A stretch of 64,000 nt of DNA from Alloprevotella sp. (lineage in GTDB: Bacteria > Bacteroidota > Bacteroidia > Bacteroidales > Bacteroidaceae): NCBI GenBank assembly GCA_017476545.1, contig JAFUZP010000032.1:27180-91179 (forward strand). Direction: 5' to 3'. The number at the start of each line of letters is the position of its first letter. Position 1 is the stretch's first letter. A program made the translations under genes and the position numbers. The notes below the pieces were generated by a model, which was not told the DNA's origin, did no database searches, and was given only the letters and a program-made list of their open reading frames with translations. Shown piece by piece: positions 11,367 through 58,374 of the stretch.

Positions 11367-11446
11367 TGCCCCTAGGGTTAGTTCTCCGTAACCCTATAGT
11401 CAGTACGCCGTAACCCTAGGGTTAGGAACACGCATCCCTGGGGCTG
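11367..11446. repeat. 22-bp-period palindromic array 1
   Basis: Cores tgcccctagggtta (11367), taaccctatagtca (11389), taaccctagggtta (11411) and degenerate catccctggggctg (11433); linkers gttctccg, gtacgccg, ggaacacg. Confidence 0.9.
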
Positions 11447-18539: not shown

Positions 18540-18619
18540 CCCCCCTAGGGGCAGTCCGCCGTAACCATAGGGTTAGTTCGTCTTATCCCTGCGGTTAGTT
18601 TTTCCTAACCCTATGGGTA
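18540..18619. repeat. 22-bp-period palindromic array 2
   Basis: Cores cccccctaggggca (18540), taaccatagggtta (18562), tatccctgcggtta (18584), taaccctatgggta (18606); linkers gtccgccg, gttcgtct, gtttttcc. Confidence 0.9.
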
Positions 18620-27601: not shown

Positions 27602-27967
27602 TGTTTCACGGTCACGGGTGCCCTGAGATTGCGTATAATTCATGAAAGAAATCCGCACCGGGGCTGCAGCATAGTCTTTGCGCGCGGTAATAATGCGCTA
27701 TTTATACAAAGAAACACTGTTTTCTGCCCTAAAACGGAGAAATCGCAGTGGAATTAGTTGCTTTTATGCCCGTTTCGGAGAAATCTACCCGTAGGGTTAG
27801 GCGGTATTATCCATAGGGATAGTTCATTTTAACCATAGGGTTACGGACAACTAACCCTACGGTTAGCGAGAAATTAACGCAGCGGTGACTCTTTCCAGAG
27901 CCGAATTGACTACTTTTTTCCGCTGGAACAGTCGGATGTCAGTGTCAAAATCATTGAACGTGAAACA
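27602..27967 (+). mobile_element. Non-coding ~366-bp MITE-like element, copy A, containing array 3
   Basis: Ends TGTTTCACG / CGTGAAACA (inverted repeat extends to 12 bp, 27599-27970); homologous to the reverse complement of 42663-43014; mobility is inferred and no transposase was seen. Confidence 0.65.
27786..27888. repeat. 22-bp-period palindromic array 3
   Basis: Cores tacccgtagggtta (27786), tatccatagggata (27808), taaccatagggtta (27830), taaccctacggtta (27852), plus taacgcagcggtga (27875, after a 9-bp linker). Confidence 0.9.
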
Positions 27968-28123
27968 TGGAAAGTTATCCACAATCCGAGGGCGAATTCT
28001 GCATGGGTGGAAAATGAAGGCCAACTCCCCCACCCCAATTTGAGGCTTGTGGGTGGAGTCTCCTATTATACTCACTATTAATGAAGTGTTTGTGGGGGAT
28101 AATGGATTGCCGCTACAGGCTGA

Positions 28124-42662: not shown

Positions 42663-43014
42663 TGTTTCACGCTGGAAAAGTAAAAAGTATTGACATGGGA
42701 ACATGCGCGTTCTAGCACTAAAAATGCGCGTCCGGGGGATATTCTTTCCTGTCCCGTGGGGGAATTTTCACTAACGTAGGGGTTAGTTTTCCGTAACCCT
42801 ATGGGTAATTTGCGCTAGAAGTACCGTTACGAGGCCACCAACGAAGGGCTATCTTGGCGTTCCTGCTGGGATAAAACAGAAAAACAGACCAGAAAATGGC
42901 CTGTTTTCGGTGATATAGGACAAAATTCCCTCACGGAACTGGCTGCGTTACAGCCGGCTCAGGTTTAGTCTGCAGGAAATGCACGATTCTCCGAGCCTGC
43001 GTGACCGTGAAACA
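42663..43014 (-). mobile_element. Non-coding ~352-bp MITE-like element, copy B (inverted), containing array 4
   Basis: TGTTTCACG at 42663-42671 and CGTGAAACA at 43006-43014; the reverse complement starts TGTTTCACGGTCACG exactly as copy A does. Confidence 0.65.
42728..42873. repeat. 22-bp-period palindromic array 4 (eroded)
   Basis: Good cores taacgtaggggtta (42772) and taaccctatgggta (42794); in-phase decayed cores at 42728, 42750, 42816, 42838 and 42860. Confidence 0.8.
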
Positions 43015-48621: not shown

Positions 48622-48745
48622 TAACCGTAGGGATAGTTCTTCGTAACCCTGCGGTTAGTTTCTCGTAACCCTAGGGTCAGTTTACCGTAACCCTAGGGGT
48701 GGTTAGCCGATACCCTGCGGTCAGGAATGTCTCACCGCAGGGGGC
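48622..48745. repeat. 22-bp-period palindromic array 5 (six units)
   Basis: Cores at 48622, 48644, 48666, 48688, 48710 and 48732; linkers gttcttcg, gtttctcg, gtttaccg, gttagccg, ggaatgtc. Confidence 0.93.
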
Positions 48746-58294: not shown

Positions 58295-58374
58295 TAACCA
58301 TAGGGGTACGGAGAACTAACCGCAGGGTTACTGCGAACTAACCCTATGGGTACGAACGACTAACCCTATGGATA
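58295..58374. repeat. 22-bp-period palindromic array 6 (linkers inverted)
   Basis: Cores taaccataggggta (58295), taaccgcagggtta (58317), taaccctatgggta (58339), taaccctatggata (58361); linkers cggagaac, ctgcgaac, cgaacgac. Confidence 0.92.

Follow-up and report, generated by a model that had tools for sequence, protein, structure and literature searches.

Tn7-like and IS481 elements have TGT...ACA termini, duplicate 5-6 bp of their target and depend on a transposase of the rve type. The att sites of Bacteroides tyrosine recombinases include those of IntDOT and those of the invertases, the latter with 5-bp arms around a 7-bp centre; a cassette moved by such an enzyme is bounded at both ends, in direct orientation, by inverted arms around a centre of 6-8 bp. 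In the parS of phage P1, ParB boxes are placed on either side of an IHF bend, in less than 100 bp. Prokaryotic MITEs are recognized by a length below 500 bp, the lack of an ORF, an intergenic position, multiple copies, TIRs of 4-30 bp, a target duplication and an autonomous IS that has the same ends (PMC10969869). Among the Bacteroidales, BrickBuilt from Porphyromonas gingivalis is, in the passages of Klein et al. (2015, PMC4596501) that describe it, an intergenic and species-restricted element with 10-20 copies, made up of a leader, tandem 22/23-bp repeats and a tail. Its inverted ends of 12 bp, which only a minority of the copies retain intact, match those of the IS5-family members ISPg1 and ISPg9 (GAGACC...), and three of four intact copies hold duplications. 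PINSR from Prevotella intermedia appears, in the part of Naito et al. (PMC4755523) devoted to it, as an intergenic, lineage-specific and ORF-less repeat of 188 bp without terminal inverted repeats, present in ~180 copies per genome. Two further systems are relevant at the protein-binding level: chromosomal parS, whose consensus is given in PMC7383237 as TGTTTCAC-GTGAAACA, and the HU-HIG clade, considered unlikely to act as sequence-specific transcription factors in the passages of Burroughs et al. (2017, PMC5499826) on these proteins. The same passages present its winged-helix subclade (PF18291) as fast-diverging, lineage-expanded Bacteroidetes relatives of HU, and name no DNA site for it.

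The DNA analysed here (the window, that is, the whole stretch of 64,000 nucleotides) comes from an Alloprevotella sp. assembly, G000, of 1.98 Mb, 80% complete and in 46 unordered contigs, which originates from animal gut samples and in which Rho is only 88% alike to that of the nearest genomes. C-numbers designate contigs of G000, G-numbers genomes and L-numbers loci. The window holds two copies, A and B, of a cassette (Table 1).

Table 1. Positions of the cassette copies, their parts and the other main-family arrays in the window
Feature	Position	Strand	Remarks
Four-box array outside the cassettes	11367..11446	.	
Array of the main family, outside the cassettes	18562..18619	.	
Cassette copy A, inverted-end subfamily	27602..27967	+	366 bp
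Left end of copy A, TGTTTCACGGTCA	27602..27614	+	parS consensus, left half including the central CG, followed by GTCA
Leader of copy A	27615..27785	+	Homologous among copies, diverged, 36-63% pairwise (5-copy alignment)
Four-box array of copy A	27786..27865	.	14-bp palindrome TAACC-N4-GGTTA, 22-bp period; belongs to a genome-wide family
Decayed fifth array unit of copy A	27875-27888		
Inner palindrome of copy A, TGTCAA-N5-TTGAA	27943..27958	+	Family consensus TGTCAA-N5-TTGAC, common to both subfamilies
Right end of copy A, CGTGAAACA	27959..27967	+	Right half of the parS consensus
Presumed DnaA box TTATCCACA at copy A	27975..27983	+	7 bp beyond the right end
Cassette copy B	42663..43014	-	352 bp
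Right end of copy B	42663..42671	-	parS half
Inner palindrome of copy B, TGTCAA-N5-TTTAC	42680..42695	-	
Array of copy B, decayed, with five units	42750..42851	.	One of the five arrays with the strongest decay (164 scored)
Left end of copy B	43002..43014	-	parS half + GTCA
Array of the main family, outside the cassettes	48622..48745	.	
Array of the main family, outside the cassettes	58295..58374	.	

Compared with these systems, the cassette resembles a prokaryotic MITE in being shorter than 500 bp, ORF-less, intergenic and multi-copy, but inverted ends are present in five of its ten copies and a target duplication in none of those five. With the Tn7-like and IS481 elements it shares TGT...ACA termini (at four of the five left ends and four of the five right ends of the inverted-end copies), without their duplication and, in the 80%-complete assembly, without an rve transposase. 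The inner palindrome of the cassette, TGTCA-N7-TGAC, is shaped like the att sites of Bacteroides, direct copies of it bound five cassettes and no target is duplicated; however, no cognate recombinase was found, no circle was seen, and the site also stands alone in mnmG. As in phage P1, pieces of a partition site flank a site for a protein of the HU/IHF family (here a candidate site), although the P1 site has other boxes and a fraction of the ~350 bp of the cassette. The outer 9 bp of each end of the inverted-end copies equal one half of the chromosomal parS consensus with its central CG (PMC7383237; parS is reviewed in PMC7333895), and the host genus uses this parS; in contrast to chromosomal parS, the cassettes hold half-sites only, ~330 bp apart and away from the native site behind mnmG, and the intact 16-bp palindrome is found in no copy.

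The likeness to BrickBuilt extends to the layout of leader, tandem repeats and tail, the restriction to one species and the copy number. Nevertheless, the ends of the cassette are parS halves or direct palindromes, unlike those in Table 2 of PMC4596501, duplications are lacking, the unit is a 22-bp palindromic one in runs of ~four instead of the 23-nt unit of P. gingivalis, and most of the arrays of G000 lie outside the cassette. The cassette works like BrickBuilt, itself small and loaded with repeats, but has neither the ends nor the duplications of that element, and we class it neither with the MITEs nor with Tn7-like elements or parS sites. PINSR, which is set apart by its description only (PMC4755523), offers a parallel in copy number alone.

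Copies A and B begin with TGTTTCACGGTCACG and finish with CGTGAAACA. Their shared ends, coordinates and lengths of 366 and 352 bp are those of the preliminary description, and its count of 32 identities in an ungapped comparison of 53 bp is exact on recount. The inward similarity that it proposed exceeds that of shuffled controls: once ends and array are removed, the two leaders align with z=7.9, a value reached by 0/300 dinucleotide shuffles, and the tails with z=2.7, reached by 5/300. The reported lack of a convincing ORF and of a flanking target duplication has also been borne out, as the longest ATG-started ORFs have 33 (A) and 23 (B) codons and only chance 4-mers at shifted offsets flank the copies. 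The bounds of the element hold in part, since the ends are where they had been placed, but in A and in two other copies, C9 and C23 (three of the five inverted-end copies), similarity does not stop at the right-hand repeat and runs ~18 bp further. This stretch passes through a box, 7 bp outside the right end, which we take to be a DnaA box from its consensus, and this means that homology crosses the supposed terminus. Copy B shows no DnaA box at its right end. The 9-mer end occurs at 17 sites in the genome, from which ~0.004 inverted pairs 300-400 bp apart would be expected by chance, and three exact pairs were observed. The two segments are confirmed as genuine copies of a gene-less DNA cassette of ~350 bp. 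Copy A has an FdtA/WxcM-like gene and a PAP2 gene as neighbours and lies upstream of a sugar-synthesis cluster whose first gene is FdtA-like, and copy B lies upstream of rho and follows a nucleosidase gene at a distance of 13 bp. An Alloprevotella and a Prevotellaceae record hold the best relatives of this nucleosidase, in keeping with the genus.

The search of the genome revealed a family of at least ten copies, intergenic and of 333-385 bp, which enlarges the original two-copy picture and also corrects it, half of the copies being without inverted ends. Three further copies with inverted ends are found at C9:124430-124772, C23:47803-48145 and C5:18056-18440. Leave-one-out profiles made from four of these five copies recover the leader of the fifth in 5/5 cases (E 2e-3 to 7e-16) and its tail in 3/5. 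As previously claimed, the ends are better conserved than the body, with invariant columns amounting to 12/13 at the left end and 8/9 at the right end versus 14/135 in the leader. The other five copies (C23:35079, C27, two on C11, and C12) were reached via the motif TGTCAA-N5-TTGAC inside the right end. They exhibit the same layout and tail, no inverted ends and no parS halves; a full inner palindrome precedes the leader and half to a full one follows the tail, in direct orientation. In the inverted-end copies, the inner palindrome is present at the right only and the left direct repeat is absent. The copy on C27 bridges both subfamilies, with leader z of 5-10 to A, B and C23 and of 7-9 to C11a, although some pairs of copies across the two subfamilies are not significant alone. 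Iterated profiles of G000 yielded no eleventh copy. It is nearly certain that these copies form a dispersed family that was once copied.

Outside this genome, a DNA search of 40 relatives gave no cassette match. The two-end pattern and the right end with its DnaA box were each found in 0/147 other genomes of the genus, and the right-end pattern with DnaA box was also absent from the metagenome contigs searched. Cassette profiles run over the sampled relative and viral loci matched only G000 and the parS-DnaA composites of phages. No cassette was present among the 48 viral matches to the two-end pattern, and no cassette homology among the 24 viral matches to the inner-site pattern; the array pattern gave two unrelated matches in viruses and 85 in metagenomes, the latter in other organisms and without a cassette. 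In nine genomes of the genus, the inner-site pattern fell in uvrA-like coding sequence (eight) or was unrelated. Restricted to one species, the cassette is old and carries only a minor share of the arrays.

The left end of the five inverted-end copies, A and B included, corresponds to the first nine bases of the parS consensus and the right end to the last nine, so that the central CG is common to both. The parS core is present in 61/148 genomes of the genus (control, 0), typically directly behind mnmG, and this is also the position of the intact parS of G000 (C8:33297). A DnaA box adjacent to native parS was found in 0/147 genomes of the genus, and a composite of both as the source of the ends is, for this reason, hypothetical. 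No cassette copy lies on the contig of the native parS (C8) or on that of the DnaA-box cluster (C13). The candidate explanation that the copies mark native parS targets is unlikely, because the native sites lie behind mnmG and lack a DnaA box. In viruses, a full parS lies within 43 of the 48 two-end matches, and three of the four matches to the right end consist of an intact parS, 7 bp and a DnaA box. A single ancestral split of parS, later copied with its flanks, would fit these data best.

Small gut phage contigs (L142, L144, L145 and L143) hold parS, 7 bp and a DnaA box near one end. Three of them, whose parS is intact, are phi29-like in our reading of their gene content and size, and in L143 two parS halves stand in tandem, along with three DnaA boxes. 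Many of the viral contigs L284-L331 are of 8-15 kb and 33-38% GC, with two or three full parS within ~350 bp. Within G000, a parS-like TTTCACG-CGTGAAACA is found at C10:130268-130284, upstream of parA-parB (L012); it has two extra central bases, as if the halves had been joined with the CG doubled.

The inner palindrome, with 5-bp inverted arms around 7 bp, is common to both subfamilies. In its exact form it occurs at five genomic sites versus 0.5 expected, namely, four cassette left ends and mnmG. Inside mnmG/gidA (G000:C8:31930-31965, L376), the palindrome and both of its flanks lie in frame, 1.35 kb before the native parS. At this point the protein reads SADAMSKYLTF. Of the residues that D, A and M replace here, E is conserved in 29, P in 28 and A in 29 of 29 relatives (among the matches listed; 59 relatives matched). 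The whole gene shows 17 departures at 351 conserved positions, four of which fall within five residues at the inner site. Judging by this sequence pattern, the inner palindrome looks functional, and the site in mnmG would either be bound by a protein or result from a recombination event that overwrote the codons. Together, this site and the ends made of parS halves and a DnaA box hint at a link between the arrays and chromosome partition.

The reading that we prefer, with a probability of about one half, is that of an old, fixed and non-autonomous cassette which was spread by a recombinase and carries an HU-HIG docking array, one branch of it having split or captured a parS-DnaA composite. For the enzyme, the sequence of events and the protein on the array, we propose the following. 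A tyrosine-type recombinase, supplied in trans, would have moved the cassette as a circle via the inner palindrome. One integration at a parS-DnaA-box composite, probably on a phage or another mobile element, would have split parS at the central CG, and this split would have founded the inverted-end subfamily, later copied with its flanks. While the body drifted, either the mobilizing enzyme or the binding of ParB/DnaA would have preserved the ends, and the cassette would be one of several carriers feeding a lattice of ~171 arrays, one per 10 kb. Since the inverted-end copies lack the left direct repeat, the inner site does not account for their own spread.

The notion of an old, non-autonomous mobile element had already been put forward in the preliminary description. 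Age, lack of genes and multiple copies speak for it, and one related copy has a probable empty site; the DDE type suggested there has not stood up. In the distant relative G066, a recD-like gene and cls are ~55-95 bp apart with no cassette, and in G000 the direct-repeat copy C11b lies between the two genes, 7 bp behind the recD-like stop codon and ahead of the promoter of cls. This site is empty in 1/19 relatives among the matches listed, and in G121 it holds an unrelated insert. No empty site was found for A, B, C9 or C23b, the loci compared being not syntenic (rho upstream in four relatives, nucleosidase downstream in two, relA in five and mraZ in four).

Of a longer copy with the same ends and a transposase, for which the preliminary description proposed to look, the 80%-complete assembly of G000 gave no sign: rve, DDE_Tnp_1 and IS110 were not matched, nor were serine recombinases. 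The assignment to a DDE family such as Tn7 or IS481 is unsupported because the TGT...ACA ends are two parS halves (consensus in PMC7383237), target duplications and a transposase are lacking, and half of the family is bounded by direct repeats. Tyrosine recombinases do occur in G000, XerC/D-like at C13 and C10 and a single Bacteroidetes-type integrase at C37. None of them lies beside a cassette copy, and the only match to the inner site in their vicinity, with two mismatches, is near the C37 integrase. No dif-like site was recognized. Neither an excision circle nor an inversion joint appeared in the contigs of five runs, four of them maybe from the source samples, contigs being prone to drop rare variants. 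Both A and B are spanned, with no difference, in three source-like runs, and copy B is present in one run from a second study, where it shows five differences in 488 bp; the copies look old and fixed.

Two other origins have been discarded. An iteron origin was rejected as no Rep gene lies beside any copy among the neighbours listed. In REP/REPIN systems, a RAYT (Y1) transposase gene is flanked by repeats; no such gene was found in G000, where the one weak match to Y1_Tnp (E 4e-5), in a 332-codon frame at G000:C25:5170 (L089), is more than 7 kb from the nearest array of the main family.

An unlikely alternative is a classical MITE, in which a DDE transposase would have recognized inverted ends of 12-13 bp, the duplications having decayed and the match to parS being a coincidence. 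Size, intergenic position, multiple copies and conserved ends are as in a MITE, the inverted repeat extends 3 bp beyond the parS half and is perfect over 12 bp in C9, and metagenome assemblies often lose transposases. In addition, there is a precedent in the Bacteroidales, BrickBuilt, which likewise has a leader, repeats and a tail (in the passages of PMC4596501 mentioned above), and direct repeats fade with age (PMC10969869). However, all five inverted-end copies lack duplications despite their intact ends, homology continues past the right end through the DnaA box in three of the five, direct repeats bound five of the ten copies, and neither rve nor DDE_Tnp_1 nor IS110 was matched.

We regard as similarly doubtful a selected and non-mobile module, in which ParB half-sites, DnaA box and inner palindrome would flank a DNA-bending HU-HIG array, the copies arising by duplication or conversion and acting as weak secondary sites of partition or nucleoid anchoring. 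Such a module would account for ends that are kept around a body only 36-63% alike, for an inner site that in mnmG replaces residues kept in 28-29/29 relatives 1.35 kb from the native parS, and for the parS-DnaA spacing shared with phages, one of them with tandem half-sites. Nonetheless, B, C9 and C23 have three of the five arrays with the strongest decay among the 164 scored, which would not be predicted from a bending role. The half-sites are ~330 bp apart, the copies lie neither by the native parS nor by the DnaA-box cluster, the end patterns are absent in 147 genomes of the genus, and the direct-repeat copies have no parS halves at all.

A more far-reaching scheme, which we hold to be improbable, is the following. 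A mobile cassette would insert into, or would have captured, a host parS, split at CG around the HU-HIG array; through binding of HU-HIG, the DNA would form a loop in which both halves meet as a site of conditional ParB loading by the DnaA box, and the cassettes would seed a species-specific HU-HIG lattice of ~10 kb that organizes or self-marks the nucleoid.

Far less credible is an invertible promoter, that is, a Bacteroides-type phase switch between inverted repeats of 9-12 bp. The position of copy A upstream of a sugar-synthesis cluster would suit it, and the length of the cassette is plausible, but the inside is oriented alike relative to the outer DnaA box in 3/3 copies, deep runs have unbroken contigs across both copies with no inversion joint, no serine recombinase was matched, the neighbours include rho and mraZ, and several of these have their own TAnnTTTG boxes, which we presume to be promoter-like. 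The structured non-coding RNA closed by a terminal helix, also considered in the preliminary description, is very unlikely too. In its favour, the folding of whole copies is better than that of shuffles (z -3.0 and -3.25), but this energy includes palindromes and ends; leaders and tails taken by themselves give no consistent result (z 0 to -3.1), the consensus covariation term is unfavourable (+3.1), the terminal helix shows no compensatory change and there is no Rfam match in the window.

As for the arrays that the cassette carries, the main family comprises 168 merged members (170 raw ones in the first scan) plus three decayed ones, ~171 in total. Four units are present in 117/170 raw arrays, and a shuffled genome gave 0 pairs. 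Only 10 of the ~171 are carried by cassettes, so that the claim of a general spread of arrays by the element is not borne out; the flanks of the others show no clear trace of it. The candidate explanation that all arrays descend from the cassette was rejected, since 318 other array flanks compared with 760 control flanks gave no clear score shift (p 0.04, 0.19), and the one strong flank match to the cassette is a family member. In a strict search, 55/168 arrays have a flank in common with at least one other, and the largest of these groups consists of the promoter-leader found in a paralogous family of small genes. The array unit is nearly private, as a variant of it was found in only one (G057) of 120 other genomes of the genus, and relatives carry their own 21/22-bp array families at similar intervals.

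The arrays are evenly distributed. Their spacing has a mean of 10.5 kb and a CV of 0.475, versus a mean of 0.84 and a lowest value of 0.67 in 2000 random placements in intergenic gaps, and there are three gaps below 3 kb versus 21.6 expected. This even spacing is likely to be set by selection on the arrays and not by the cassette. At least eight minor 22/23-bp families exist in G000, and they avoid the main one (median distance 5.9 vs 3.8 kb for random gaps, p=0.002). Family-specific target immunity as the cause of the spacing is weakened, because different array families avoid one another. In two other genomes (G163:C6:500001-680000, L131-L139, and G048:C3:60001-140000, L180-L183), array families interleave and are jointly ~5-9 kb apart, which suggests that the spacing acts across families.

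Arrays of this kind are also linked to HU-HIG genes. The genes examined, here termed HU-HIG-wHTH, are those whose winged-helix tail is PF18291, and each tends to stand behind its own array of four boxes with a period of 21-23 bp. A private array is located 100-420 bp upstream of 19/27 such genes of the genus (25 at a looser cut) and downstream of 0/27, the background being 0-21% of genes; the 27 are the 30 loci listed minus G163, G023 and G057, with 47 genomes matched. In three other families, an array is upstream of 9/9 HU-HIG-wHTH genes. In five of eight sampled genomes, the upstream array was not seen elsewhere in 20-80 kb. That of G091 recurs once in 80 kb, that of G057 belongs to a dispersed family with 11 copies in 166 kb, and those of G163 to dispersed families with 11 and 9 copies in 260 kb.

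The arrays of G000 show the features of these HU-HIG-linked ones, that is, ~four palindromic units with a 22-bp period. In G057 and G163, the dispersed array also stands upstream of an HU-HIG gene of that genome; in the 80%-complete assembly of G000 no HU-HIG-wHTH gene was found, and hence no partner of the TAACC array. An HU-HIG nucleoid protein likely docks at the four-box array of the cassette. Short HU-HIG genes are present in G000, and 6/7 of them are followed, at most 75 bp downstream, by an array of a minor family, but these short paralogs are co-duplicated, so the six cases are not independent. Similarity of HU-HIG proteins correlates weakly with that of their arrays (rho 0.23, with pairs that are not independent). 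At C11:66714, C36:17799, C36:40710, C9:136657, C15:276 and C27:20213, the sequence of the four-box array follows the type of HU-HIG paralog.

HU-HIG is an expanded Bacteroidales family with no target known. The gene-by-gene pairing with private four-box arrays, together with the even 10-kb tiling by some of them, makes the targeting of HU-HIG directly testable, and the cassette represents one way for arrays to travel without their gene. A literature search, with most subscription journals and supplements outside its reach, found no paper on the arrays, on their pairing with HU-HIG or on an element that splits parS; the supplement of PMC5499826, on gene neighbourhoods, may bear on novelty. New here are the parS/DnaA ends, the two end types and the inner site inside mnmG across invariant residues.

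Other repeats accompany the arrays. At ~40 loci of G000 (such as C3:2136-3200, C10:122926 and C45:43043), an array and a shared promoter-leader precede an ORF of 170-235 aa. These ORFs have a conserved start with a KKxYVxP motif and a variable Cys-rich body; in some cases a short HU-HIG gene and an array of a second family come after them. Another family forms long tandem repeats of a 22-bp unit, near-perfect and with up to 14 units, at five contig ends (C6, C17, C21:93500, C34 and C35) and at C8:56783, and a 23-bp tandem family at C20, C29, C39 and C41. At the contig ends C1:110492-end, C2:13615-end and C43:18615-end, arrays adjoin a shared repeat with GTCCGCTAAA boxes, which is possibly the end of an integrative element. 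Finally, the metagenome contigs L199-L283 include many unrelated loci with a GTAACC-N4-GGTTAC pair at 22-bp spacing beside TTGAC, in an arrangement like that of an operator over a promoter.
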